Of a stretch of 64,000 nucleotides of DNA, positions 4,253-42,980 are shown in pieces. Position 1 is the first letter of the stretch. Each line of letters begins with the position of its first letter. The DNA comes from an uncultured Chloroflexia bacterium (GTDB lineage Bacteria; Chloroflexota; Limnocylindria; QHBO01). The stretch lies in contig CAVZCE010000001.1 of NCBI GenBank assembly GCA_963773695.1, forward strand, positions 205,702 through 269,701, given 5' to 3'. A program made the position numbers and the translations under genes. The notes under the pieces are model-generated. The model worked only from the letters and a program-made list of their open reading frames with translations. It had not been told where the DNA came from and did no database searches.

Positions 4253-4624
4253 TCAGCCGTCGCGGGGGCGACGGACGGTCACCTCCACCGCCTGGAACGG
4301 CCCGGGGAGCGGGGCGCGCGGCTTTCGCACCCGCACCTCCACCCGGCGCGCACCGCTGGACTCCAGCACGGCATCCGCGATCTTCCCGGCGAGGGCCTCG
4401 ATGAGGCGGAAGCTCTCCCCCTCCACGATGCGCGCCACGAGGCTGAAGACCGCCCCGTAGTCGATGGTGTCCTCCAGGGCGTCGCTCGCCGTCGGCCGGT
4501 CCAGGTCCGTCCACAGCTCAACGTCCACCTCGAAGGGCTGCGGCTCGAGGCGCTCCTCCAGCGTGACGCCGTGGCGTGCGAGGAAGAGCATGCCGCGCAG
4601 GACGATCCTGTCGTCGTCGGTCAC
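4253..4624 (-). CDS. folB: Dihydroneopterin aldolase
   Basis: VTDDDRIVLRGMLFLARHGVTLEERLEPQPFEVDVELWTDL..DTIDYGAVF.. matches the FolB family. The GTG start overlaps the folP stop as GTGA. Confidence 0.8.
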   Translation of the reverse strand: MTDDDRIVLRGMLFLARHGVTLEERLEPQPFEVDVELWTDLDRPTASDALEDTIDYGAVFSLVARIVEGESFRLIEALAGKIADAVLESSGARRVEVRVRKPRAPLPGPFQAVEVTVRRPRDG

Positions 4625-5508
4625 GACTCCGCGCTCCCGCCGGCTGCGGCAGCCGGCGTTCCGGTTCCGAAGCGGACGATGGCGTCCGCCACCCGGATCG
4701 TGCGGGAGATGGGGGCCACGTCGTGGACGCGCACGATGTCGGCGCCGCCGGCGATGGCGAGCGCGACGCTGGCCGCCGTCCCTTCCAGCCGATCGTCGGG
4801 CGGCGCCCCGTCCAGCAGCTCGCCGATGAACCGCTTGCGCGAGGTCCCGACCAGCACGGGCAGCCGGAGGACGGCCTTGATCCGGGCCAGCCCGTGCAGC
4901 AGCGCCAGGTTCTGGACGCGGGTCTTGGCGAAGCCGATGCCGGGGTCGACGACGATGCGTTCGCGCGGGACGCCGAGCCGGATCGCCGCGTCGACCGCCT
5001 CCGCCAGCCACGCGGTCACCGTCTCGACGACGCCGTCGGGGTAGTTGCCGGCCCCGCTGTTGTGCATGATCACGAGGTGGGCCCCGGCACGGGCGGCCGC
5101 GACGGCGGTTCCCGGGTCCCGCTGCGCGCCCCACACGTCGTTCACGATGACCGCCCCCGCGTCGAGTGCCGCGGCCGCCACCTCCCCGCGGCTGGTGTCG
5201 ATGCTCACCAGCGCCCGGCCCGCGAAGGCGCTCGCGAGGGCGGCCACGACGGGCACCGCGCGGGCCAGCTCGACCTCCGGATCGACCGGCTCCCGCTCAC
5301 CGTACGCACTCGGCGGCCGGGTCGACTCCGCGCCGACGTCGAGGATCTCCGCGCCCGACTCGACGAAGGCCCGCGCCTGCTCCAGCGCCGCGGCCACCGT
5401 TTCCGCCTCACTGCGCCCGGGGAGCGCCAGCCCGTCACCCGAAAAGGAGTCGGGCGTGACGTTCACGATGCCCATCAGCCAGGTCTTCTCGCCGAAGGTC
5501 AGCTCCAC
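4621..5508 (-). CDS. folP: Dihydropteroate synthase
   Basis: MELTFGEKTWLMGIVNVTPDSFSGDG...ILDVGAESTRP...VSIDTS...HDV match the pterin-binding DHPS fold. Its start overlaps the folC stop by 10 nt. Confidence 0.9.
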   Translation of the reverse strand: MELTFGEKTWLMGIVNVTPDSFSGDGLALPGRSEAETVAAALEQARAFVESGAEILDVGAESTRPPSAYGEREPVDPEVELARAVPVVAALASAFAGRALVSIDTSRGEVAAAALDAGAVIVNDVWGAQRDPGTAVAAARAGAHLVIMHNSGAGNYPDGVVETVTAWLAEAVDAAIRLGVPRERIVVDPGIGFAKTRVQNLALLHGLARIKAVLRLPVLVGTSRKRFIGELLDGAPPDDRLEGTAASVALAIAGGADIVRVHDVAPISRTIRVADAIVRFGTGTPAAAAGGSAES

Positions 5509-13098: not shown

Positions 13099-14862
13099 AT
13101 GGCCGGTCCGCACCACGGCTCCTCTCCGTTCGCGGCCTTCGCGGCGACCGCCGACGCGATCGCCGGCACGCGCTCGAAGCTCGTCAAGCGCGACCTCCTT
13201 GCCGCGTACCTCCGCGACCTTCCGGAGCCGGACCTGCCCATCGCCGCGACCTTCGTCTCGGGGCGTCCGCTGGCGGGAGCGGGGGACCGGCTGGGGCTCG
13301 GCTGGGTGCAGCTCTCCGGCGCGCTGCAGGCCGCGAGCGGTGCGGGCGACGACGAGCTGCGAGGCGCGTACCTGCGTCACTCGGATCCGGGGGATGCCGC
13401 CGCCGACCTCCTGGAACGGGTCCCGGCGGGTGCGGCGCTCACCCTCGCGGAGCTGGATGCGGGCTTCCGTGGCATGGCGGCGGCCCCCGGCACCGAGACG
13501 CGGACCGGGCTGATGGCCGGGCTCTTCGCACGGGCGAGCGCCGACGAGGCGCGCTACCTCGCGCGCATCGCGGCTCGCGAGCTGCGGATCGGCCTGCGGG
13601 AAGGGCTCCTGGAGGAGGCCATCGGGGCCGCGTTCGACCGCCCCCTGGAGGACGTGCGGCGCGCGCTCATGCTTGTCGGCGAGGCGGGTGAGGCTGCGGC
13701 GCTGGCCCGTGCCGGCCGGCTCGGCGAGGCGCGCCTTCGCCTTGGTCGTCCGGTCCGCTTCATGCTCGCGACCCCGGTCGCCGACGCCGGGGAGGTCGTG
13801 CGCCGCGTGGGCGCGGAGGCCTGGATCGAGGACAAGTACGACGGGATCCGCTGCCAGCTGCACCTGGGCCCGGGGACGGACGGCGCACGCCTCTTCAGCC
13901 GCGACCTGAACGAGATCACCGTCAGCTTCCCGGAGGTCGTGGCCTCCGCCGCGGAGCTGGGCCACGCGCTCGTCCTGGACGGAGAGCTGGTCCCGTTCCG
14001 CGAGGGCGCGGTGATGGACTTCGCCGCGCTCCAGACGCGCCTGGGCCGCGTCGACCCCGGACCGGAACTCGTCGCCGAGGTGCCGGTGGTGCTCGTGGCC
14101 TTCGACCTGCTGCATCTCGACGGGGAGGACCTGCTGGACGTCTCCCTGCGCGAGCGGCGCGGCGCGCTGGAGCGCCTCTCCCTGCCGGAGCGGAGCGCCG
14201 GCGGCCTCCTCTACTCGCACCTGGCGACGGTGCGCGGGCCGGCCGCCGTGGACGCCGCCTTCGACGAGGCACGCGAGCGCCACAACGAGGGCCTGATGAT
14301 CAAGGATCCGGCCTCGGCCTACCAGCCGGGCCGGCGCGGCCTGGGCTGGCTGAAGCTCAAGCGCGCGCTCGCCACGCTCGACTGCGTGGTGGTCGGCGTC
14401 GAATGGGGCCACGGCAAGCGGCGCGGCGTCCTCTCGGACTACACGTTCGCCGTCCTGGGACCCGACGGCGAGTCGCTGCTCACCATCGGCAAGGCGTACA
14501 CCGGCCTCACCGATGCCGAGATCGCGGAGATGACGCGCCACTTCCTGGCGACCACGGTGAGCGACCACGGGCGGTACCGCAGCGTGGTGCCGGAGGTGGT
14601 CGTGGAGATCGCCTTCGATCGCATCATGCGCTCGAGCCGGCACCGCTCCGGCTTCGCGCTGCGCTTCCCGCGCATCCTGCGGATCCGGAGCGACAAGGGG
14701 CCGGACCAGGTGGACGACCTGGCGGCGGTCGAGCGGCTCTTCGCGGAGCAGGCCTCCGGCCGGATCCTCCTCGCGACCGGCGCGGGAGGCGAGACGGAGC
14801 GGATCGCCGCGGGGCTGCGCGGCGCCGAGGATGCGACGCCGGGCGCGGGCGCTCGCCGCTAG
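13099..14862 (+). CDS. ATP-dependent DNA ligase (LigB-type: N-terminal DNA-binding domain, adenylation domain, OB fold)
   Basis: Motif I is WIEDKYDGIRCQLH (KYDGIR). The match continues through LVLDGELVPF, MIKDPASAYQPGRRGLGWLKLK and other motifs. Confidence 0.85.
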   Translation: MAGPHHGSSPFAAFAATADAIAGTRSKLVKRDLLAAYLRDLPEPDLPIAATFVSGRPLAGAGDRLGLGWVQLSGALQAASGAGDDELRGAYLRHSDPGDAAADLLERVPAGAALTLAELDAGFRGMAAAPGTETRTGLMAGLFARASADEARYLARIAARELRIGLREGLLEEAIGAAFDRPLEDVRRALMLVGEAGEAAALARAGRLGEARLRLGRPVRFMLATPVADAGEVVRRVGAEAWIEDKYDGIRCQLHLGPGTDGARLFSRDLNEITVSFPEVVASAAELGHALVLDGELVPFREGAVMDFAALQTRLGRVDPGPELVAEVPVVLVAFDLLHLDGEDLLDVSLRERRGALERLSLPERSAGGLLYSHLATVRGPAAVDAAFDEARERHNEGLMIKDPASAYQPGRRGLGWLKLKRALATLDCVVVGVEWGHGKRRGVLSDYTFAVLGPDGESLLTIGKAYTGLTDAEIAEMTRHFLATTVSDHGRYRSVVPEVVVEIAFDRIMRSSRHRSGFALRFPRILRIRSDKGPDQVDDLAAVERLFAEQASGRILLATGAGGETERIAAGLRGAEDATPGAGARR

Positions 14863-14917: not shown

Positions 14918-15556
14918 ATGAGCGTCTTTGGAGATCCGTTCGGCTCCGACGTCACGACCGTCAGCCTGGACCTGTACACGACCGACTACCGCGTCTCCGG
15001 GAGCATGGCGACGCGCTTCTCCCGGGTCAGCGACATCCTCAACCAGGTCACCACGACCCACCTGCTGGTGGAGCAGGCGACGGTCTCCGAGTACGCCGAT
15101 CCCACGGCCACCCTGGGTTCGCGCCAGGTCCACGTAGCGCTCGACGAGATCCTCCTCTGCGTTGCCGCGACGGAGGGCACCCCGCGCCCGGAGATGCGCA
15201 TCCCCAAGCGTGCCGTGAAGGCGCAGCTCGGGATTCCGCCCTTCCGGGTCACCGGCACGGTCCACGTCCCGCAGGGGAGCCGGCCGGTGGACGGGCTGCT
15301 GAACGCGGCGGACCGCTACGTCACCGTGACGGATGCGGCGATCGCCTCCGCGGCGCACCCGGAGCTGTCGCGGAACGTGGCCGCGGTCGCGGTCCAGCGC
15401 CGCCGCGCGCACATCCTGCTCGTGGCCGACGACGAGCGCCCCGACGAGCTGCTGGCGGAGATCCTCGACGAGGCGACCGCGAAGGGCTGGCTCGGCGAAC
15501 GTGATCCGGGCCGCCAGCCCGGGCCGGGCCCGGCGGGGAGCCCGGAGCGGGGCTAG
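14918..15556 (+). CDS. Hypothetical protein
   Basis: ORF of 212 aa with good GC3 bias and no recognisable motif. Confidence 0.45.
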   Translation: MSVFGDPFGSDVTTVSLDLYTTDYRVSGSMATRFSRVSDILNQVTTTHLLVEQATVSEYADPTATLGSRQVHVALDEILLCVAATEGTPRPEMRIPKRAVKAQLGIPPFRVTGTVHVPQGSRPVDGLLNAADRYVTVTDAAIASAAHPELSRNVAAVAVQRRRAHILLVADDERPDELLAEILDEATAKGWLGERDPGRQPGPGPAGSPERG

Positions 15557-17367: not shown

Positions 17368-17618
17368 GGCGCGAGTGTGGCGGCGACGCACCACGCCGGC
17401 AATGGCGGAATCAGGCCATCGGGCTGGTACCTCCGGCGTACTCATGGCGCCGCGGGGGCGGAGGCCCCGGCGATGCGAAAACCGCGGCCCGGTCGCCGTC
17501 CGCCATCGGTCAAGGGGAGACGATCGGCACACTTGTTGCGCCGTTGTATGGTTACGGCCCGCGCCGACCTCTCGAGGGCTCTGCGAGGGCGCGGGCGAGC
17601 GAAGCGAGGCGATCGGAC

Positions 17619-18668
17619 ATGGCGCGATCGATGTGGCGGGGGGCGATCCAGTTCGGGCTGGTCACCATCCCGGTCAAGCTCTACCTGGCGACCGAGAGCA
17701 CGAGCATCGGCTTCAACCTGCTCCACGAGACCTGCCTGAACCGGATCCAGATGAAGATCTACTGCCCGTACCACGACGAGGTGATCCCGCGGTCGGAGAC
17801 GGTCCGGGGCTACGAGTGGAGCAAGGGCAAGTACGTCGTCATCACGGAGGAGGACCTCGAGTCGGTTCCGCTCAAGACGGTCCGCACCATCGAGATCGAG
17901 AAGTTCGTGGAGGCCAACGAGGCGGAGGAGTCCGCCGCCCGCTTCGTGAAGCAGGAGTACTACCTGGAGCCCGACGAGATCGGGCGCAAGGCGTTCTACC
18001 TGCTCAAGAGCGTCCTGGCCGATGCCGGCAAGACCGCGATCTGCAAGATCGTCCTCAAGGACCGCGAGCAGCTCGCCGCCCTCTCCCCGTACGCGGAGAC
18101 GATGCTCCTCACCACGCTCCACTGGCCCGACGAGATCCGTTCGCTGGAGGAGCTGGAGCTTCCCGAGGACTCGATCCAGATCAAGGACGGCGAACGGAAG
18201 ATGGCCGAGCAGCTCGTGGCGAGCCTGACCGGCGATTTCGACCCTGCCGAATACACCGACGAGTACCGCGAGGCGCTGATGGGCGTCATCGAGGCGAAGG
18301 TCGCGGGCGAGGCGCCGCAGCCGTCCGCCAGGGCGGAGCCCACCCGCATCGGCGACCTGATGGCCGCCCTCGAGGCGTCGGTCGCCGCGGCCCGGGAGGG
18401 CCGTCGCGCACCGGCCGAGGCGGAGTCGCAGGCGAAGGCGGCCGGCGAGGCGAGCCGCGGCGAGAAGCCGTCGGACGGGCGCGCATCACCGAAGGCGTCC
18501 GCGAAGGGCGTGGGCCGGACCGCATCGGGCAAGGCCGCCGCGGGCAAGGCCGCCGCAGGCAAGGCCGCCGCGGCGAAGGCCGCCGCCGGCAACGGCTCGA
18601 GCTCCCGACGGAAGGGATCCCACGAGACGGAGGAGGAGCGGCCCGCCCGCCGGCGGAAGACCGCCTGA
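17619..18668 (+). CDS. ku: Ku protein (NHEJ DNA-end-binding) with a Lys/Ala-rich basic C-terminal tail
   Basis: MARSMWRGAIQFGLVTIPVKLYLATE... is the canonical bacterial Ku N-terminus. The C-terminus (KAAAGKAAAGKAAAAKAAAGNG) is encoded by about 4 tandem 15-bp repeats. Confidence 0.9.
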   Translation: MARSMWRGAIQFGLVTIPVKLYLATESTSIGFNLLHETCLNRIQMKIYCPYHDEVIPRSETVRGYEWSKGKYVVITEEDLESVPLKTVRTIEIEKFVEANEAEESAARFVKQEYYLEPDEIGRKAFYLLKSVLADAGKTAICKIVLKDREQLAALSPYAETMLLTTLHWPDEIRSLEELELPEDSIQIKDGERKMAEQLVASLTGDFDPAEYTDEYREALMGVIEAKVAGEAPQPSARAEPTRIGDLMAALEASVAAAREGRRAPAEAESQAKAAGEASRGEKPSDGRASPKASAKGVGRTASGKAAAGKAAAGKAAAAKAAAGNGSSSRRKGSHETEEERPARRRKTA

Positions 18669-18693
18669 GCGGTGGGCGGGTAGCCTGTCGCCC

Positions 18694-19395
18694 GTGACCG
18701 GCGACCAGCTCAGCCTCCCCCTCGAGACGCCACCGGGCGTCTCACGCCTGCCGCAGCGGATCGCGCCCATGCAGGCCACCACCGTGGACGCGCCCTTCGA
18801 CGACCCCGAGTTCTTCTTCGAACCGTGGTGGCCCGGCGCACGTGCGCTCGCGTTCGCGGAGCGCGGACGGCTCCGGCTGCAGGTCGCCGGCCTCTCCGAC
18901 GCGCTCGCAGCCTTCCCCGAGCTCGCGGAGCTCCCCGACCAGCTGACGGATGACGGGGTGGTCCTCGACGGGACGCTGCTGGTCCTGGACGCGTCCGGCA
19001 GACCGGACGGTGGCCTCCTCCGCCGGCGCCTGGGCCGGGGAGGCGGCGAAGGCCGCGGCGCCGGGCGTCCCGCGTACGTGGCCTCGGACCTGCTCTGGAG
19101 CGGCGGGGCGTCGTGGATGCGGCGTTCCTTCGCGGCGCGCCGTGAACGCCTGACGGCGGTCCTGGCTCCCGGGGACCGGGTGATCGTGGGGCACGGCTAC
19201 TCCCGCGAGGGAACGCTGGTCGCGGAGGCGCTCGCCATGCTGGGGATCGAAGGCCTGTCGGCTCGGTGCCTCACCGCCCGGTACCGCGGCGGTCCCGCGG
19301 GCGACGCCTGGCTGCGCGCATCGATCGTCCCGCCGGAACCGCGGCCGCGTCCCACGCTCGCGCTCCTCCTCCGGCTCCCGCTGGACCAGGGCTGA
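18694..19395 (+). CDS. LigD-like ATP-dependent ligase (adenylation) domain protein with all catalytic lysines replaced: predicted inactive pseudo-ligase
   Basis: It aligns colinearly with the LigD ligase domain: PMQATTVDAPFDDPEFFFEPWWPGARALAF (motif I KxDGxR becomes WWPGAR), VVLDGTLLVLDASG, SDLLW (motif III), EGLSAR (motif IV K to R) and WLRAS (motif V KxK lost). It sits 25 nt after the Ku stop. Confidence 0.55.
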   Translation: MTGDQLSLPLETPPGVSRLPQRIAPMQATTVDAPFDDPEFFFEPWWPGARALAFAERGRLRLQVAGLSDALAAFPELAELPDQLTDDGVVLDGTLLVLDASGRPDGGLLRRRLGRGGGEGRGAGRPAYVASDLLWSGGASWMRRSFAARRERLTAVLAPGDRVIVGHGYSREGTLVAEALAMLGIEGLSARCLTARYRGGPAGDAWLRASIVPPEPRPRPTLALLLRLPLDQG

Positions 19396-19408: not shown

Positions 19409-21649
19409 TCAGCCGTTCGCCGGAAGGAGCGCGTCCCATTCGGCCAGCCAGCCCTGCGGCGGGGTGAGCCGCTGCGCGCTCGCCACGAAGCCGTCGCCCG
19501 GATAGGGCCGGAAGGTCGCGATGTCCCAGATCAGGCGAGGCTGGCCGCCGGGCGTCGTGGGGATGGGTCGCCCGCGGAGCAGGACCCCCATGACGGCAGC
19601 GTGCGTGGTGTCCTCGCCCCAGTGCTGCTGCAGGAGCACGGCGACGTCCCACGTCAGCACCTCGGCCGGGCCCTGTTGCTCGGCGACGGCCAGCGCGTCG
19701 CTCGCGGCACGACGATCGCCGACCATCGCGTAGGCGAGGGCGCGCACCGCCGGAGCGGTGTAGCGCTCGGGCGTGATCGGATAGTCCTGTGTCCGGCGCG
19801 CGGCGAGGAGGGCGAGCTCGCCGGTGGCCAGGTTGCCCTCCGCGGGGAGCGTGGTCCCCGGGTCCACCCGCCGCGGCCAGTGGATGGCGAAGCTCGTGTC
19901 GTACGTGGTGAGGAGCGATCGGCGGAAGGCGTCATCGGCGAGGGCGTGGTCGCCGAGCTTCTCGTAGACGATGGCGGCGTTGATCAGCTCGCGCCCTCCC
20001 ACCGCGGCGTAGGCGACCGCCGGACCGGCGGCGTCCAGGGCGCAGGCGCGGTCGCCGGCGGCCTCGCAGAGGATCGCCAGGTTCGCCCAGGACTGGGCAT
20101 CGCCGGCGTTCAGCTGGGTGGCGCGGCGCGCGGCGTCGAGGGCCAGCGCGCGGTTCCCCGCGTAGTCGGCGGCCACCGCCAGCGCCTTTGGCCCGGTCGG
20201 CTGCCAGGGGTCGAGCACCACCGCCCGCTGGTAGCCGGCCTCTGCGGCCTGCCAGCGCAGCGCCCACGCGTCGTCAGAGGCGGCACGGTAGGTCACCGCC
20301 GCGGTGTCGACCAGGAAGACGGGAACGAGGAGGGCGATGGCGCCGATGCCGGCGAGGACGGCGCCACTCACCGCGGCCGGGCGGCCGAGCCGTGATCCGG
20401 CGCCGCGGCGGAGCGGCAGCCAGCGGACGGCATCGGCGTCGAGGAGAGCGACGGCGGCGAGCAGCAGCACGAGCAGGTCGAACCCGGGCAGGAAGGTGAG
20501 GTCCTCGAAGAGCCCGGCCGCCCCGATCCCGATGAGGACCGATGACGCGAGACGGCCGCCCAGCGTGCGCGAGCGGTGCGGACCAGCCAGCCAGACGAAG
20601 ACTGCGACGACGGCCAGGGCCGCGACCAGGCCCACGATGCCGGCGTCGCCGAGCACCCCGAGCGCCAGGTCGTGGGAGTGCGGCTGGTGCACCGGGAAGC
20701 TGCCGGCGGGCGCGGCCGCCTCTCGCGCAAAGGGCATGACGCCCGGCCCGACGCCGAGGATGGGGTTCGCCGACCACGCGCGAAGCGTGTCGCGCCACAG
20801 GTTCTCCCGGTAGAGGAGCGAGCTCACCGCGACAGCCCGGTGACCGGCGTAGATGCCGCCGCCCACGAGGACGACAACGCCCGCGATCCAGGCGGCGACG
20901 CCACCCGGCGTGGTCGGCAGTCGGGGACGCAGCCGCAGCCGTCTCCTGGCGCGGAGCAGGACCGGCACGAGCATGGCCAGTGCCGTGACCCCCATGGCGA
21001 TCCAGGCGGAGCGCGAGCCGGACAGGAGCGCGAGGGGGATCCCGGCCAGGATGAGCCCGGCCTGCAGGACGAGGCGCAGGACCCGGTGGGGGACGAGGAA
21101 GGTCAGCCCGAAGCAGGCGAGGAGGATGAAGGGGGCGACGGCGACCGATCCGAAGGCCGTCGTCTCGCCCGGCAGCCGGATCGGCGGCAGGCCCGGTGCG
21201 CCGGAGGTGACCCAGCGCAGCCTGCGGATCAGCATGTCGACCAGGGTGAGGAGGGCCACCCCGGTCACCGGGACGATCACCGCCAGCGCCGTGATCGCCG
21301 GCCGGCGCCGGGTAACCACCAGGGCGACCGGCAGCAGGAGCGCCCAGGCGATGCTCACCGCGAAGGCCCGCGCGGAGAGGCCGGGATTCTCGCTCGTGAT
21401 GGTCGCCACGCCCAGCGTCACGAGCAGGACGAGGAGGGGCAGCTCCAGCGCGGAGCGCGGAACCGGGAGGCCGCGCAGTGCCATGATCGCCAGGCCGGCG
21501 ACGGCCGCCCCGGCGAGGAGGTGGAGCAGCGCCTGGGAGGTCGGATCCCAGAGGGGCTCGTCCCAGGCGAGGTAGCCGAACACGGCGAGCCCGGCGGCCA
21601 GGGCGCCGAGCTCAACGAGCGAGAAGCGCGCCGGGCCCAGGCGGATCAC
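19409..21649 (-). CDS. O-antigen ligase/polymerase-like (Wzy_C) polytopic membrane protein with a C-terminal TPR-repeat domain
   Basis: There are more than 10 TM helices with the O-antigen-ligase motif LSGSRSAWIAMGVTALAML. The C-terminal TPR-like repeats include AWALRWQAAEAGYQRAVVLDP and AQSWANLAILCEAAGD. The GTG start overlaps the CYTH stop as GTGA. Confidence 0.65.
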   Translation of the reverse strand: MIRLGPARFSLVELGALAAGLAVFGYLAWDEPLWDPTSQALLHLLAGAAVAGLAIMALRGLPVPRSALELPLLVLLVTLGVATITSENPGLSARAFAVSIAWALLLPVALVVTRRRPAITALAVIVPVTGVALLTLVDMLIRRLRWVTSGAPGLPPIRLPGETTAFGSVAVAPFILLACFGLTFLVPHRVLRLVLQAGLILAGIPLALLSGSRSAWIAMGVTALAMLVPVLLRARRRLRLRPRLPTTPGGVAAWIAGVVVLVGGGIYAGHRAVAVSSLLYRENLWRDTLRAWSANPILGVGPGVMPFAREAAAPAGSFPVHQPHSHDLALGVLGDAGIVGLVAALAVVAVFVWLAGPHRSRTLGGRLASSVLIGIGAAGLFEDLTFLPGFDLLVLLLAAVALLDADAVRWLPLRRGAGSRLGRPAAVSGAVLAGIGAIALLVPVFLVDTAAVTYRAASDDAWALRWQAAEAGYQRAVVLDPWQPTGPKALAVAADYAGNRALALDAARRATQLNAGDAQSWANLAILCEAAGDRACALDAAGPAVAYAAVGGRELINAAIVYEKLGDHALADDAFRRSLLTTYDTSFAIHWPRRVDPGTTLPAEGNLATGELALLAARRTQDYPITPERYTAPAVRALAYAMVGDRRAASDALAVAEQQGPAEVLTWDVAVLLQQHWGEDTTHAAVMGVLLRGRPIPTTPGGQPRLIWDIATFRPYPGDGFVASAQRLTPPQGWLAEWDALLPANG

Positions 21650-22341
21650 GGATCGTCGGACGCTGCGGCGTCCCGCCTTCGGACGACCGCGCCGGATCCG
21701 CCGATCAGCTCCAGCGCGCGCTCGAGCTTGCTGCGTGGATCCGGCCGCAGGCCCTCGACCGCCGAGAGAGAGCGCGCGAGGGCTTCGACGAGCTTCCTGT
21801 CGCCGGCAGCGTCTTCGGCGAGCTCCAGCTCCACGATGCAGAAGGCGCCCGCGTGGGCCCCGCCGTGGCGGACCTCGACGCGGTCCAGGCTCAGGGTGCC
21901 GACCGACCTGCCGCCCGCCGAGACGGCGCGCTCGGTGCGCTCCTGGAGGAGGCGGAAGCGCTCGACGAGCGGTGCCCCGTGGGCGAGGGTGGCGACCAGG
22001 TCGCGGGCCGCGGAGGGTGGCCACGACGTCGGATCCGGGCGGTCCGATGCCGGGCCCTCGCGTTCGGGACGCCGGTGCAGGGCCGAGCCGGGCGTCTCGC
22101 TGCCGCCGGGGCCCTTGAGCGAGACGACGATCCTGCCCTCCCGGCGGCGCAGCCGGCAGGCCCAGCGGGCCCGCGCCAGCCGTCCGTCGGGGGTGTCGAG
22201 GTAGCGGTCCGTCTCCGAGACGGTCCTCGCCGGCCCCAGCACCGCGCGTCCCAGGGTCGGCGCGCGGGACAGGGCGTCCAGCGGACCGGCATCGGCGGCG
22301 ATCAGCTTCAGCTCGACCTCGTCGTGATCAGGCGCTGCCAT
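21646..22341 (-). CDS. CYTH-domain protein (triphosphate tunnel metalloenzyme family)
   Basis: The N-terminal EVELKLI (ExExK) motif is followed by DRYLDT, LRRREGRIVVSLKG and CIVELELAEDA. The ATG at 22341 overlaps the WYL-regulator stop by 14 nt. Confidence 0.7.
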   Translation of the reverse strand: MAAPDHDEVELKLIAADAGPLDALSRAPTLGRAVLGPARTVSETDRYLDTPDGRLARARWACRLRRREGRIVVSLKGPGGSETPGSALHRRPEREGPASDRPDPTSWPPSAARDLVATLAHGAPLVERFRLLQERTERAVSAGGRSVGTLSLDRVEVRHGGAHAGAFCIVELELAEDAAGDRKLVEALARSLSAVEGLRPDPRSKLERALELIGGSGAVVRRRDAAASDDP

Positions 22342-23431
22342 CCACCTCACCGTACCGCGCGGCGGCGGCGCGCAGCGATGCCGCGACCGACGCCCGCAGC
22401 TCGGCAGGCGCCAGCACCTCCACCCCGTCGCCCCAGGAGAGGATCCACGGCCGAATCTCCACGATGCCGGCCACCGTCACGCTCAGCTCGACGCCGCCAT
22501 CGGGCAGCTCCGTGAGCCGCTGGGACCGGTGCCAGACCGCCTCCCGCACGCGATGTGCCACGGCCGGGTCGAACCGCAGCCGGACCTCCGCGGTGGGAGT
22601 CGTGTCGGAGGACCAGATGCCCCAGGAGTTCGCCAGCCAGCGATCGGGATCGAAGCCGGCGGGGATCTCGTAGCGCTCCGCCAGGAGGGTCGCGGAGCGG
22701 ATCCGCTCGATCTTGAAGGTGCGCATGGCATCGGCACCCTCGTCGAAGCAGATGAGGTAGACGCTGCGCAGCGCGGCATCGGGCTCCAGGAAGTAGGGGC
22801 GCACGCGGGTGACGCGGCGGGTCCCCTCGCCGGGCTCGTAGTCGATCTCCACGACGCGGCCCTCGGCCCACGCCCGGGCCACGGTCGAGAAGGTGCGCGT
22901 GAACGGCTCGTTGGGGGAGTGGGCGCCCACGGCCAGCATGGTGGCCGCCACGTGGCGCGCGATCGGCTGGGGGAGCAGGTCCGCGAGCTTGGTGAAGGCG
23001 CTGACCACCGCCTGGTCGTACTCGTCGCTCCAGCGGGCGATGAGGCGCGCGGCCAGGAAGAGGACGATCGCCTCCGGCACGGAGAGCCGCAGCGGCGGGA
23101 GGAAGTACTTGCGCTCGATCCCGTACCGTCCACGGCCCGCCTGGAAGATGGGGACACCGAGCTCGGTGTCGAGGGCGTTGATGTCGCGATAGACGGTGCG
23201 GGTCGTCATCCCCGTCAGGCGCGCGATCTCGGATACCGGGACGCCGTGCTCGCCGCTCCCGGCGGTGTAGAGGATCGAGGCGACGCGGAGGAGCCGCGCC
23301 AGGCGGTCGCGCTTGCGGCCGATGCGGTCATCGGCGTCGACCGGATCGTCCCGGTCGCCAATCCAGGGATCCGGCGCGCGCCCGTCGACCACCCGCTCGT
23401 CAGGGCTCGCGGGACGCTCGGGAGTGGCCAT
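22328..23431 (-). CDS. WYL-domain transcriptional regulator (HTH + WYL + WCX; PafBC/BrxR-like)
   Basis: The HTH is LARLLRVASILYTAGSGEHGVPVSEIARLTGMTTRTVYRDINAL. The WYL region is VTRVRPYFLEPDAALRSVYLICFDEGADAMRTFKIERI. The N-terminal 40 aa are low-complexity, so the start is uncertain. Confidence 0.75.
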   Translation of the reverse strand: MATPERPASPDERVVDGRAPDPWIGDRDDPVDADDRIGRKRDRLARLLRVASILYTAGSGEHGVPVSEIARLTGMTTRTVYRDINALDTELGVPIFQAGRGRYGIERKYFLPPLRLSVPEAIVLFLAARLIARWSDEYDQAVVSAFTKLADLLPQPIARHVAATMLAVGAHSPNEPFTRTFSTVARAWAEGRVVEIDYEPGEGTRRVTRVRPYFLEPDAALRSVYLICFDEGADAMRTFKIERIRSATLLAERYEIPAGFDPDRWLANSWGIWSSDTTPTAEVRLRFDPAVAHRVREAVWHRSQRLTELPDGGVELSVTVAGIVEIRPWILSWGDGVEVLAPAELRASVAASLRAAAARYGEVDGSA

Positions 23432-39037: not shown

Positions 39038-40129
39038 ATGAAGCTCCTGCATTTCGCCGACCTGCACCTTGACGCCCCGTTCGCGTGGGCGCGACCGGAG
39101 ACGGCGCTCGTCCGGCGGCGCAACCGGCGCGAGACCCTCACGCGGATCCTTCGCACCGCGGCGGAGGAGCACGTCGACGCCGTCCTCTGCGCCGGTGACC
39201 TCTTCGAGCACGACCGGGTCACGCCGGCGACCGTCGAGTTCCTGCGGTCGAGCTTCGCCGATGCCGGCGTCCCCGTGTACCTCGCGCCCGGCAACCACGA
39301 CTGGCTCTCGCCCACCAGCCCCTATGCGCTCGCGGAGTGGAGCCCCAACGTCCACATCTTTCGAGCCGCGCGGCTCGAGCCGCTGGCCCTCGCCGACGGC
39401 CTCACGCTGTGGGGCGCGGCCCACCGGGCGCCGGCGAACACCGACGGGTTCTTCACGGGGTTCCGCCCGGACCGCGACGGCGTCCATCTCGCGCTCGCGC
39501 ACGCTTCGGAGCGCGGCGCGCTCGGCTGGCAGGAGAGTGGCAAGCAGCCGCACGCCCCGTTCGAGCCCGGGGAGCTGGAGACGGCGGGGATCGCCCACGC
39601 ATTCCTCGGCCACTACCACCTGCCGCGCGACGCGGATCGCTACACGTACCCGGGCAACCCCGACCCGCTCGAGTTCGGCGAGACCGGTGATCGCGGGGCG
39701 GTCATCGCGGAGGTGATGCCGGACGGCTCGGTACGCCGCGAGCGCCGCGCGGTCGCGGTGAGCGAGGTGCACGACCTCACCGTCGCGCTCGACGGCGCCG
39801 CGCACATGGACGAGGTGGAGGCCGCCATCGGGGCGGCGTCCGCCGGGCTGCACGGCTGCATCCGGGTGACCCTGGTGGGAGAGGTTGCGCCCACCCTCGA
39901 GCTCGACCGGCGAGAGCTCGCCCGCATCGCCGCGGGTGCCGGGGACCTCGTGCTCCGGGTCGGTTCGGTGCGGACCGGCTACGCCCTCGAGGAGATCGAG
40001 CGCGAAACCACCGTGCGAGGCCAGTTCGTGCGGGCGGCCGCGGGCATCGAGGACGCGGAGCTGCGGCGTCGCGTCATCCTCACCGGGCTGCGGGCACTGG
40101 AAGGGCGCCCGGACCTGGAGGTGGCCTGA
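39038..40129 (+). CDS. Metallophosphoesterase DNA-repair exonuclease (SbcD/Mre11-like, YhaO-type)
   Basis: MKLLHFADLHLD, AVLCAGDLFEH, LAPGNHD and GHYH are the calcineurin-like phosphoesterase motifs I-IV. Confidence 0.75.
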   Translation: MKLLHFADLHLDAPFAWARPETALVRRRNRRETLTRILRTAAEEHVDAVLCAGDLFEHDRVTPATVEFLRSSFADAGVPVYLAPGNHDWLSPTSPYALAEWSPNVHIFRAARLEPLALADGLTLWGAAHRAPANTDGFFTGFRPDRDGVHLALAHASERGALGWQESGKQPHAPFEPGELETAGIAHAFLGHYHLPRDADRYTYPGNPDPLEFGETGDRGAVIAEVMPDGSVRRERRAVAVSEVHDLTVALDGAAHMDEVEAAIGAASAGLHGCIRVTLVGEVAPTLELDRRELARIAAGAGDLVLRVGSVRTGYALEEIERETTVRGQFVRAAAGIEDAELRRRVILTGLRALEGRPDLEVA

Positions 40130-40130
40130 G

Positions 40131-42980
40131 ATGCGCATCCGCCGGGTCGTCGCCCATGCCTTCGGCCCCTTCGTGGAGGAGGCCCTCGAGCTCGCGGAGG
40201 GCATGACGGTCGTGGCCGGGCCGAACGAGGCCGGCAAGTCGAGCTGGCACGCGGCGACGCGACTGGCCCTCACCGGCCTGCGCCGCGGCCGCGGTCGCAC
40301 GACGAAGGAGGATGCCGCGCTGGCGGAGCGGCATCGGCCGTGGGACAACCCGGATCGGTGGGAGGTGGAGGCCCGCCTGGACCTCGATGACGGCCGGACG
40401 ATCGATATCAACCAGGACCTGGCAGGCAAGGTTGCCTGCCGCGCCGTCGACGTGGCACTCGGGCGCGACGTCTCCGACGAGATCCTCGACGGCACCCCGG
40501 ATGCGTCGCGCTGGCTCGGGCTGGACCGGGACGCCTTTGCCACGACGGTCTCCGTGAACCAGGCGGAGATCATGGCCGTCGCGGAGGCCGCGGACGCCCT
40601 CCAGGAGCAGATGCAGCGAGCCGCCTCGACGCGCGGCACGGATGCCACCGCCGCGCAGGCCATCGAGCGGCTCACCGACTTCCGGCGCGAGGTCGTGGGG
40701 GCCGACACCATCGCGGCCAAGGGGCCGCTGCGCATGGGCCGCAACCGCCTCGCCGCCGCGACGGAGGCGCTGGCGGTCGCGCGCCAGCGGCACGTGGCGT
40801 ACCTCGACGAGACGCGTCGGACGGAGGAGGCGGAGCGGCGGGTGACGGCCGCCAGGGGGGAGCTCACGCTCGCGGAGGCGGCAGCGGCCCGTCTGCGGGC
40901 CCGTCGGTCGACCGAGCAAGCAGCACGCGCCACCGCGCTCGCGGCCCGGCACCCTGCACCCCCGCCGGCGCTATCCGCGCGCGACGCCGCCGCGGATCTC
41001 GTCGCGTCCGCGATCTCCGGCTGGGAGCGACGTCCGGCCCCGGTCGAGCTCGCCGGCGCCTCCAGCGCCTCGATCACGGAGGAGCTCGCGCGCCTGCCCG
41101 CGGCGCCCGGCGGCCCGCTGCAGCCGGAGCCGGAGCTTCGCGGCCTGCTGGCGGAGCTGGACCGCGCGGAGGAGGCCCTGGGCCTGCTCGCTCCGCAGCA
41201 CGCTCTCCTCGAGGCACCCCCGGACGACCTCGCCGGGCAGGCTGAGCGGATGCGGGCCCTCGCCCGGCGCCTTGCCTCGCCGACCCCGGTGGGTGCCGAG
41301 GCGCTCGAGACGGAGCTGGTGGAGGCGCGCCAGGCGGCCTCCGGCGCCGGGCGACCCGGCATCCTGTCGACCGCCCTCGGGCTGGCTCTCGCGATCGCCG
41401 GCGTGGTGCTCGCGCTCGTGACGGGCCCGCTGATCGGCGGTGCCGCCCTTGTCGCCGGACTCCTGGTGGCGGGCTGGGGATGGATGGCAGGCTCGACCGC
41501 TCGCGCCGCCGACCGACGGGTGGCGGCTGCCGAGGCGGCTCTCGCGCCGTACCGCATTGCCCTGGAGCGCTCGGCCGATGATCGCCGCGCCGCCGCGAGG
41601 GAGGCGCGTCAGGCAGGGTGGCCGGACGATGCGGCAGCGCTGGATGCCCTCGCGGATCGAACCCACGAGATGGTCCGCGACGCCGCGCGCGATCTCTCCC
41701 TCGCGGCGGAGGAGCGGGCGCGGCGGGCCAGCGTGGAGGCGCGCCGGGACGATGCGGCCCGCCGTCTCACCCGGGCGCTTGCCGAACATGGCATCGCGGG
41801 GCACCCGGATGCCCGCGCCGCGTGGTCCGCGTACGAGGCGTCGTGCTCCGAGCGCGCGCGGCAGGCCGCGGAGGCCGCGCAGGCCGAACCCCTGCGGCGC
41901 GCGCTCGCGTCCCGCCGCGCCGCGGAGGAGACGGCCGCGGGGGTCCGCCGGGCCATCGACGCGGCCCGCGCCGGGCTCGTCCAGGCGGCGGAGGCGGCCG
42001 GCGTCGCGCCGAACCCGGATCCGGGGCGCCTGGTGGAGGAGCTTCGTGCATGGCAGGCCGCTCGCGCCGCATCGATGACGACGAACCAGCGGGCGATCGA
42101 GGAGTGGCGCGAGCTCACGAGCCTGCTCGACGGCCGCACCCTGGATGCGATCCGGGAGGAGGCCCGCGAGCGCGCACGGGAGGCGGACCAGCGGGCGCGT
42201 GGGCTCGACGACGCAGAGATCGATCACCTTGCCGGCCGGCCGGACCTGGAGAGCGTGGTGGCGGACCGGCGACGGGCGACGGCGGAGGTGGAGCGCGTCG
42301 CGCACGCCCTTCGGGGCGGCCTCGATGTCCTCGCCATCGGCGTGCCCGACGTCGCCGCCGCCGAGGAGGCGGTGGAGTCGGCGACCGCGGAGCTCGCGCG
42401 CGTGCAGGCACTGGCCACGACCATCGACGAGACCCTCCGCCTCCTGCGCGAAGCACAGGACCGCGTGCATCGCGACCTCGCGCCGGTCCTCGCGCAGGCC
42501 GTGGGGCGATGGCTGCCGGTCGTGAGCGGCGGCGCCTACGTGGAGGTGAGCGTCGATCCGGCGAACCTGGCGGTGACCGTCAAGGAGGCAGCCACGGGGC
42601 TGTGGCGGCAGGCGCGGCTCCTCTCCGCCGGGACCCGGGAGCAGATCTACCTGCTGCTGCGCGTTGCGATGGCGCAGCACCTGGTCACGACCGGGGAGAC
42701 GGCACCGCTCCTGCTCGACGAGGTCACCGCCCAGGCGGACCCGGAGCGTCGGGCCGGGCTGTTGCGCGTGCTCCACGAGCTCAGCCGGGAGCGGCAGGTG
42801 ATCCTCTTCAGCCACGACGAGGCCGTGGCGGCATGGGCCGAGCGGAGCCTTGCCGCACCGCGCGACTGCCTCGTCCGCCTGGCCGGCAGGACGGCGCGGG
42901 CGAGCGGATCGGGGGCCGATGGCGGTCATCCAGGCGAGATGGCGGACCCGCGCCCCACGACGCTGACGCTCTCCGCCTGA
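40131..42980 (+). CDS. SbcC/Rad50-like AAA ATPase (YhaN-type) with a long coiled-coil region
   Basis: The N-terminal Walker A is GPNEAGKSS. An Ala/Arg/Glu-rich coiled coil follows. The C-terminal Walker B / D-loop is LLLDEVTAQADPERR...VILFSHD. Its ATG lies 1 nt after the sbcD-like stop. Confidence 0.75.
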   Translation: MRIRRVVAHAFGPFVEEALELAEGMTVVAGPNEAGKSSWHAATRLALTGLRRGRGRTTKEDAALAERHRPWDNPDRWEVEARLDLDDGRTIDINQDLAGKVACRAVDVALGRDVSDEILDGTPDASRWLGLDRDAFATTVSVNQAEIMAVAEAADALQEQMQRAASTRGTDATAAQAIERLTDFRREVVGADTIAAKGPLRMGRNRLAAATEALAVARQRHVAYLDETRRTEEAERRVTAARGELTLAEAAAARLRARRSTEQAARATALAARHPAPPPALSARDAAADLVASAISGWERRPAPVELAGASSASITEELARLPAAPGGPLQPEPELRGLLAELDRAEEALGLLAPQHALLEAPPDDLAGQAERMRALARRLASPTPVGAEALETELVEARQAASGAGRPGILSTALGLALAIAGVVLALVTGPLIGGAALVAGLLVAGWGWMAGSTARAADRRVAAAEAALAPYRIALERSADDRRAAAREARQAGWPDDAAALDALADRTHEMVRDAARDLSLAAEERARRASVEARRDDAARRLTRALAEHGIAGHPDARAAWSAYEASCSERARQAAEAAQAEPLRRALASRRAAEETAAGVRRAIDAARAGLVQAAEAAGVAPNPDPGRLVEELRAWQAARAASMTTNQRAIEEWRELTSLLDGRTLDAIREEARERAREADQRARGLDDAEIDHLAGRPDLESVVADRRRATAEVERVAHALRGGLDVLAIGVPDVAAAEEAVESATAELARVQALATTIDETLRLLREAQDRVHRDLAPVLAQAVGRWLPVVSGGAYVEVSVDPANLAVTVKEAATGLWRQARLLSAGTREQIYLLLRVAMAQHLVTTGETAPLLLDEVTAQADPERRAGLLRVLHELSRERQVILFSHDEAVAAWAERSLAAPRDCLVRLAGRTARASGSGADGGHPGEMADPRPTTLTLSA

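Follow-up and report, generated by a model that had tools for sequence, protein, structure and literature searches.

What might a ligase domain that is predicted to be unable to ligate be doing directly behind the gene for Ku? [quoted passage not shown] Here, a gene for Ku is followed on the same strand by an open reading frame (ORF) whose product, which we call the pseudo-ligase, resembles half of the ligase core of LigD. On the strength of its sequence we consider it probable, at roughly 60%, that this protein is a non-catalytic NHEJ adaptor, a third subunit of Ku-dependent end joining. The two genes are:

17619-18668, plus strand: Ku, 349 residues (Pfam PF02735, E 1.3e-40; TIGR02772 Ku_bact, E 1.4e-80; PHROG Ku-like, E 1.5e-54)
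18694-19395, plus strand: pseudo-ligase, a stand-alone LigD-type nucleotidyl transferase (NTase) domain without OB domain, 233 residues (homology; AlphaFold2 (AF2) and Foldseek; ratio of non-synonymous to synonymous substitution rates (dN/dS))

The Ku stop codon, TGA, has its last base at 18668, and the pseudo-ligase ORF begins with GTG. As the initial annotation of this DNA had stated, 25 nucleotides (nt) lie between the two.

The 233-residue product had been called a homologue of the LigD adenylation domain, and the profile, structural and modelling comparisons all agree with that assignment. Residues 18-209 match LigD ligase-domain models (NF007210, E 1e-25; TIGR02779, E 2.8e-17), and the ligase-domain structures of Mycobacterium tuberculosis LigD (1VS0, 6NHX and 6NHZ) are matched at E about 2e-13 (3e-13 for 1VS0); the PF01068 score, at 24 bits, falls slightly below the gathering threshold of 26.2 bits. 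An AF2 model computed from an alignment of 32 family members has a mean predicted local distance difference test (pLDDT) value of 79 and a predicted template-modelling score (pTM) of 0.79. When this model was compared with the PDB using Foldseek, the best matches were all NTase domains of ATP-dependent DNA ligases, mycobacterial LigD included (TMq 0.73, E 2.7e-14), so that the check on fold conservation by AlphaFold recovered the ligase NTase fold. As far as sequence and model can indicate, the pseudo-ligase is a true homologue of the ligase NTase (adenylation) domain of LigD and has its fold.

Its catalytic motifs are a different matter. The protein was aligned residue by residue with M. tuberculosis LigD and with the LigB-type ligase encoded in the same window, and a family alignment of 121 sequences (the window protein included) was examined at the same positions:

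18820-18843, plus strand: motif I, ExKxDGxR (EGKWDGYR in the active ligase) replaced by EPWWPGAR; Trp stands for the Lys nucleophile and Pro for the Asp
18967-18975, plus strand: motif III, LDGE replaced by LDGT (DGE to DGT)
19075-19098, plus strand: motif IIIa, YVASDLLW; WAFDLL replaced by VASDLL, with loss of the aromatic residue before the Asp
19249-19266, plus strand: motif IV, EGxxxK (EGVIAK) replaced by EGLSAR
19309-19323, plus strand: motif V, WxKxK (WVKxK) replaced by WLRAS

W45, W46, P47 and G48 of motif I are invariant (121/121), and EPWWPGxR is present in 119 of the 120 homologues listed. T94, the motif III residue that is Glu in active relatives, is found in 120 of 121 members; residue 131, in place of the motif IIIa Phe (xAFDLL), is Ser in 100, Ala in 13 and Gly in 7 of the 121; R191 of motif IV, a Lys in active relatives, is present in 118/121; and R208 of motif V in 121/121, with Pro or Ser at position 210. 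The Arg of motif I, the Asp-Gly of motif III and the Glu-Gly of motif IV have been kept, and D132, R149, R150 and many other positions are further invariants of the family. No Lys or His is conserved at any position of the family alignment, and there is therefore no alternative nucleophile; the protein moreover ends 25 residues past motif V, which means that the OB domain (PF04679) is absent. Judged from these alignments, the pseudo-ligase has no possible lysine nucleophile, cannot form lysyl-AMP and cannot be a ligase; neither self-adenylylation nor sealing of nicks or ends is predicted for it. Lost together are the lysines that contact phosphate, the Glu that contacts the ribose and the aromatic residue that stacks on adenine. 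The initial annotation had listed motifs I, IV and V as substituted, to which the present comparison adds the Glu of motif III and the aromatic residue of motif IIIa.

The family behind these alignments is large and well preserved. A search covering 5.8 billion proteins returned at least 120 homologues among the matches listed, which are 63-83% identical to the window protein and almost all 228-246 residues long. When GTDB species were scanned with one genome each, 216 genomes proved to encode a relative, and the best 80 of the 216 are almost all Candidatus Limnocylindria or Chloroflexota metagenome-assembled genomes (MAGs). Pairwise dN/dS against three orthologues is 0.14-0.34 for the pseudo-ligase (0.26-0.39 for Ku, 0.19-0.34 for LigB): the gene is under purifying selection. 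The GC content at its three codon positions (0.80/0.58/0.89) is typical of this 72% GC genome.

The initial annotation had named sequencing error and recent decay as what could undo its reading. Because the same substitutions recur in 119 of the 120 homologues listed, an error of sequencing or assembly is excluded; the frame is intact in relatives, the coding bias is typical of the genome and dN/dS is like that of Ku and LigB. An artefact or a recently decaying LigD pseudogene might be suspected from the PF01068 score under the gathering threshold, from the shorter product that NCBI gives for this gene (208 residues, P0001) and from frameshifts in two related loci (L089 and L092). The chance of it is nonetheless negligible, given an intact ORF of the same length with identical dead motifs in more than 120 proteins and 80 genomes, the dN/dS and the GC3 of 0.89 just mentioned, the family-specific invariant residues and terminal motifs, and the confident AF2 fold; family conservation, dN/dS and GC3 bias together led us to rule out a pseudogene or sequencing error. 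A defence-system or phage origin was likewise rejected: PADLOC and PHROG gave no match for the ORF, and IMG/VR gave no relative.

How closely is the gene tied to ku? In 84 loci, Ku lies directly upstream on the same strand wherever 5' sequence exists (two contigs begin inside the pseudo-ligase gene). Measured from the Ku stop, the pseudo-ligase starts at a distance of -4 to 14 nt in 67 of 71 pairs, and of 8 nt in just over half of the pairs; the 25 nt of the window is the largest genuine gap among the 71, and three outliers (-1023, 518 and that of L073, which has an over-long called product) look like assembly or parsing artefacts. Even the divergent members P0121 and P0123 (43-47% identity; loci L085 and L086) directly follow Ku, with a 4-nt overlap or a 5-nt gap, in neighbourhoods that are otherwise unrelated (urease, MoxR, a downstream β-CASP nuclease). 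The surrounding gene order has turned over completely while the Ku–pseudo-ligase pair persisted. The β-CASP/RMMBL nuclease gene (L085:7261-8394), of the family to which eukaryotic Artemis belongs, sits directly 3' of one divergent pair and is a single case.

A scan for sigma-70-type promoters and intrinsic terminators found neither between Ku and the pseudo-ligase ORF, consistent with one transcription unit. Upstream of Ku, a promoter-like element was recognized:

17533-17552, plus strand: promoter-like element TTGTTGCGCCGTTGTATGGT, consensus TTGC-N6-GGTG-TAnnnT, 67 nt 5' of the Ku start

In an alignment of 79 Ku upstream regions, the TTG, G(G/T)TG and TAnnnT blocks are near-invariant, and the full pattern is kept in about 75 of the 79 loci, also in those of Ku–LigD and Ku–pseudo-ligase–LigD type. 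The 64-kb window contains a single copy of it, and 100 shuffles contain none. Its spacing of about 10 nt is too short for sigma-70, and the element recalls the LexA-independent damage promoters of actinobacteria.

The pseudo-ligase was then placed relative to active LigD by a family-profile search of 1.84 billion representatives, in which the top active match was a Chloroflexota LigD (P0133). In one operon (L090), Ku is followed by a 248-residue pseudo-ligase (motif I EPWWPGIR, with 46% identity to the window protein and ...FLALLRRLPL at its end) and then by a full, active LigD (PE-LIG-POL, EPKWDGYR). The same Ku–pseudo-ligase–LigD order is found in L089 and L092; frameshifts split the pseudo-ligase frame in both (L089 at about 770-2600, L092 at 4300-4985) and also the Ku frame in L089, which may reflect real decay or else indel errors of long reads in MAGs of high GC content. 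Other Chloroflexota have a plain Ku–LigD arrangement (L093-95), one locus annotated as Limnocylindria has a solitary, canonical LigD (L091), and in most Limnocylindria loci no LigD adjoins. With the LIG domains of the LigDs encoded downstream of pseudo-ligases, the window protein shares 35-37% identity, more than with any other ligase tested. To judge from these sequences, the gene most likely originated by tandem duplication of the LIG part (NTase half) of a Chloroflexota LigD beside ku, after which catalytic activity and the OB domain were lost; the simplest history for the lineage of the window is that the LigD gene was later separated or lost. The initial annotation had placed the gene in the slot usually held by LigD. 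It does follow ku directly, but the view of a simple replacement does not hold, since the sister lineages have an active LigD as well: the Ku–pseudo-ligase–LigD operons make the pseudo-ligase an additional component and not merely a stand-in.

A different ligase-like family without the Lys was also seen. Its member P0173 (L096:979-2046, 355 residues) keeps NTase and OB domains, reads FEVLWDGVR in motif I, DGVIV in motif III and LAMRV in motif V, and is encoded convergently beside an active LigD (L096:2056-4839, minus strand) and a Ku fragment (4859-5224) in an unrelated organism with a GC content of 64%. The profile search returned further representatives without the Lys (P0164, P0195, P0248, P0149 and P0152), and dead paralogues of ligases may turn up repeatedly near NHEJ genes.

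If not catalysis, what has selection been preserving? Part of the answer may lie in two short segments outside the folded domain:

18706-18723, plus strand: hexapeptide QLSLPL, residues 5-10, candidate β-sliding-clamp-binding motif (conservation; identity with the Hda motif)
19351-19383, plus strand: C-terminal tail PTLALLLRLPL, remnant of the linker and first OB β-strand (family conservation)

The protein begins with M-T-G-D-Q-L-S-L-P-L. Among the homologues that include the N-terminus, 94 of 94 have Q5, L6 and L8, the GTG start stands exactly four codons 5' of the motif in most of the 84 loci, and the x positions vary among loci (P, S, R, H, D, K); a fixed start and invariant Gln and Leu residues amid varying neighbours indicate protein-level selection on the motif. 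The pattern [DE]QLxLx[LIF] is kept in cluster representatives of less than 50% identity. The AF2 model predicts this segment as coil (pLDDT 53-71), and QL.L.[LIVMF] has a background frequency of 1.6e-4 per residue in 512 other proteins of the same loci, none of which (0/512) has it in the first 20 residues. The segment fits the clamp-binding consensus (QL[SD]LF or QLxLx[LF], in an exposed, disordered and usually terminal position). QLSLPL itself, an experimentally validated clamp-binding peptide, is given, where PMC3836487 cites Kurz et al. 2004, as the hexapeptide by which Escherichia coli Hda binds the β sliding clamp, and it was engineered into the epsilon subunit of Pol III as a means of strengthening clamp binding (PMC4703070). 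Annotation of the family is in conflict, with 'bifunctional non-homologous end joining protein LigD' at JGI and 'hypothetical protein' at NCBI, and the 208-residue NCBI call for the window gene begins at Met26, so that the conserved QLSLPL is lost.

At the other end of the protein, P220, T221, L222, A223, L224, L228, P229 and L230 are invariant or nearly so; the family consensus of the tail is ...RPRPTLAL(I/L)(L/Q)RLPL, and LLxLLxRLPL is seen in distant representatives. The tail is predicted to be disordered (AF2 pLDDT below 50). It aligns with ATLDCVVVG of LigB and RPTQELVVAGY of LigD, that is, with the linker and first OB β-strand, and is therefore best described as a retained remnant of the OB domain that also ends in LxLPL. 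The initial annotation had thought of a Ku-binding scaffold or a DNA-end sensor; the N-terminal motif, as a sequence feature, points to an adaptor rather than to only one of these. Whether the pseudo-ligase binds the β clamp through its terminal motif is a tentative proposition, to which we would give somewhat less than even odds from the peptide sequence.

Could the folded domain hold on to Ku? In M. tuberculosis, one C-terminal arm of Ku contacts the NTase part of LigD LIG at D522, R567, T572, K579 and L580, according to nuclear magnetic resonance, microscale thermophoresis and AlphaFold 3 (AF3) modelling, and a D522R variant of LigD has no measurable binding to Ku alone while strong binding to DNA-bound Ku remains (preprint 10.64898/2025.12.12.693941). 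These five positions correspond to D86, A139, R144, E151 and L153 of the window protein, and the helix R149-R150-x-x-L153, the equivalent of the Ku-contact helix of M. tuberculosis, is invariant in the family. The C-terminus of the window Ku is extended and Lys/Ala-rich, with RRRKTA as its final residues. Its extension is unusually long, with GKAAA-type repeats around 18500-18600 (plus strand) and a total of 349 residues in Ku, where relatives have about 285-335; all loci keep the terminal RRRK(T/S)A. By analogy with LigD, we regard it as about an even chance that the pseudo-ligase is bound by the Ku C-terminal arm.

The initial annotation had read the gene as encoding a pseudo-enzyme partner in NHEJ derived from a LigD domain, and the family-wide dead motifs, the selection, the NTase fold and the adjacency to Ku speak for it. 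In the mechanism that we propose, the folded domain would dock on Ku-bound DNA ends, by way of the surface used by M. tuberculosis LigD for contact with a Ku C-terminal arm and/or of retained basic residues that could touch a 5'-phosphate end, and the two disordered tails would serve as tethering peptides. The β sliding clamp would receive the N-terminal [DE]QLxLx[LIF] in its hydrophobic cleft, and a second cleft, or a different partner, would be bound by the C-terminal LLxLLxRLPL. In this way, the adaptor would recruit sealing and processing enzymes, clamp-associated or other (LigA, LigB, LigD, polymerases), to breaks held by Ku or, alternatively, couple NHEJ to clamps left on broken DNA. Ligase-dead mycobacterial LigD (K481A/K484A) is said, in the work of Akey (2006) and Aniukwu (2008), still to support NHEJ, with LigC doing the sealing; a structural role is therefore possible for an inactive LIG domain.

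Several observations weigh against the adaptor. The M. tuberculosis Ku contacts are only partly kept, the position of D522 being Asp or Glu in 81 of 121 members and those of R567 and T572 unmatched. The Ku–pseudo-ligase–LigD clade has the first Gln of the hexapeptide replaced (PLPLEF, RLPLQF), a few members have RLxLxx, and full-text literature searches found no link between bacterial NHEJ and the β clamp. An intermediate member, P0150 (L088:317-1060), is preceded by a PPK2-like gene fragment and not by Ku; it has EPRWGGRR, again without Lys, in motif I, keeps DGE in motif III and carries both terminal peptides (DQLSLKL ... VLALIQRLPLE). The LigB-type ligase near the window pair, finally, is syntenic with Ku–pseudo-ligase only within Limnocylindria and is absent in L085.

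Much the same evidence (a dead NTase fold, coupling to Ku and terminal motifs) would also fit a negative regulator or decoy that competes with LigD or other ligases for the Ku arm or the 5'-phosphate end and so restrains mutagenic NHEJ, the clamp-binding peptide making such competition preferential at replication-associated clamps. Dominant-negative pseudoenzymes are a common pattern, and sharing an operon with active LigD is compatible with a modulator. We nevertheless hold this to be unlikely, as most Limnocylindria loci have no adjacent LigD and hence no nearby target to antagonize, and tight co-translation with Ku at roughly 1:1 would amount to constitutive inhibition of Ku. A sensor of ligands or DNA ends, whose remodelled pocket would hold, non-covalently, a 5'-phosphate end, 5'-adenylated DNA or a nucleotide and which would signal to, or protect, the Ku-bound ends, seems quite improbable. 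Motif I keeps its Arg, motif III its Asp-Gly and motif IV its Glu-Gly, the lysines of motifs IV and V have been exchanged conservatively for Arg (R191, R208) and a base could find a stacking partner in the two invariant Trp residues; seven nucleotide-contacting positions are altered together, however, among them the aromatic residue of motif IIIa that stacks on adenine and the Glu of motif III that contacts the ribose, and a closed clamp around nucleotide or DNA cannot form without the OB domain. That the gene has a function unrelated to NHEJ and merely hitch-hikes in the ku transcription unit is very hard to credit: the function is inferred from gene order only and the L088 member lacks an upstream Ku, but the adjacency, with gaps of about 8 nt, outlasts full turnover of the neighbourhood in members 43-47% identical, and the protein, a descendant of the very NHEJ ligase, stands between ku and ligD in the sister clade.

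Set beside known systems, the pseudo-ligase that we propose to be an adaptor works like none of the described bacterial NHEJ proteins. It shares with the LIG domain of M. tuberculosis LigD (Rv0938; 1VS0, 6NHX) the NTase fold (about 29% identity, Foldseek TMq 0.64-0.69), a gene beside ku and the NTase helix that contacts the Ku C-terminus in M. tuberculosis; unlike that enzyme, it lacks the Lys nucleophile and the OB, POL and PE domains, is degenerate in motifs I, III, IIIa, IV and V, and has N- and C-terminal peptides specific to its family. It resembles the back-up ligases LigC and LigB in being a separate gene of the ATP-ligase family that accompanies Ku in 'non-conventional' NHEJ sets, but these are active NTase plus OB (plus DBD) enzymes and the pseudo-ligase is an inactive half of a ligase core. 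With Hda/HdaA and other clamp clients (QL[SP]LPL or QLxLxL) it has an identical QLSLPL near a disordered N-terminus in common; its folded domain is unrelated to theirs, and its own clamp binding is a prediction.

The likeness to XRCC4, XLF, PAXX and APLF concerns only the proposed role, that of a non-enzymatic factor linking Ku with the ligation machinery by short peptides; there is no homology, and the eukaryotic factors are not derived from a ligase. Ligase-dead mycobacterial LigD mutants reportedly offer a closer parallel, namely an inactive LIG domain that contributes structurally while another ligase seals. These are laboratory point mutants of a three-domain LigD, whereas the pseudo-ligase is naturally selected, separate and truncated. 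The arrangement had initially been called undescribed, and full-text literature searches on bacterial NHEJ pseudo-enzymes, lysine-less ligases, clamp links and Limnocylindria DNA repair indeed found no description of it.

The remainder of the window contains other genes that may bear on DNA repair. The active LigB-type ligase that had been noted about 4 kb upstream is confirmed by three ligase Pfam domains:

13099-14862, plus strand: LigB-type ATP-dependent DNA ligase, KYDGIR (PF04675, PF01068, PF04679; NF002868, E 4e-108)

It lies 1-5 kb upstream in most loci. LigB was considered as a functional partner of the pseudo-ligase and, in view of its lineage-limited synteny and its absence in L085, was taken as context and not as evidence. 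A gene for a DUF6812 protein (14918-15556, plus strand) stands directly 3' of LigB, the two are syntenic in most Limnocylindria loci, and the DUF6812 protein may be a partner of LigB. Just 3' of Ku–pseudo-ligase, nearly all Limnocylindria loci encode a WYL regulator and most a CYTH-domain protein; in the window these are a helix-turn-helix (HTH)-WYL-WCX regulator (22328-23431, minus strand) of PafBC-like architecture (PADLOC WYL, E 1.5e-38) and its CYTH-domain neighbour (21646-22350, minus strand). The WYL protein may control the ku operon. About 20 kb from Ku, a large SbcC/Rad50-like ATPase (AAA_27, SMC_N, AAA_23; 39870-42980, plus strand) represents another gene for double-strand-break processing. 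There is no LigD POL or PE domain and no dnaN among the genes of the 64-kb window, which otherwise has ordinary chromosomal content.

These findings matter for how NHEJ is counted in genomes. The main comparative survey of bacterial NHEJ sorts genomes by the presence of LIG, POL and PE with catalytic residues unchecked (PMC7719229), and since the JGI/KO pipelines label the family as LigD, surveys that score NHEJ competence by the presence of LIG will misclassify such genomes. They also bear on how the pathway is built. A conserved dead ligase-domain protein that is co-transcribed with Ku would add a non-enzymatic accessory subunit, in a role analogous to those of XRCC4, XLF and PAXX; the pseudo-ligase lets one study, as a clean experiment of nature, what the LIG domain contributes structurally and without catalysis, and its Hda-type motif provides a directly testable hypothesis linking NHEJ with the sliding clamp. 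In the boldest form of the proposal, which on present sequence evidence we regard as doubtful, NHEJ in Chloroflexota would be a three-component system in which a dead LigD NTase domain, locked to Ku, couples double-strand ends to the β clamp through the hexapeptide and perhaps the C-terminal tail. If true, this would be the first physical link of bacterial NHEJ with the replisome clamp and the first natural pseudo-ligase subunit in any end-joining machinery, and the related Lys-less paralogues at other Ku–LigD loci (for example P0173 in L096) would make it a general, overlooked class.

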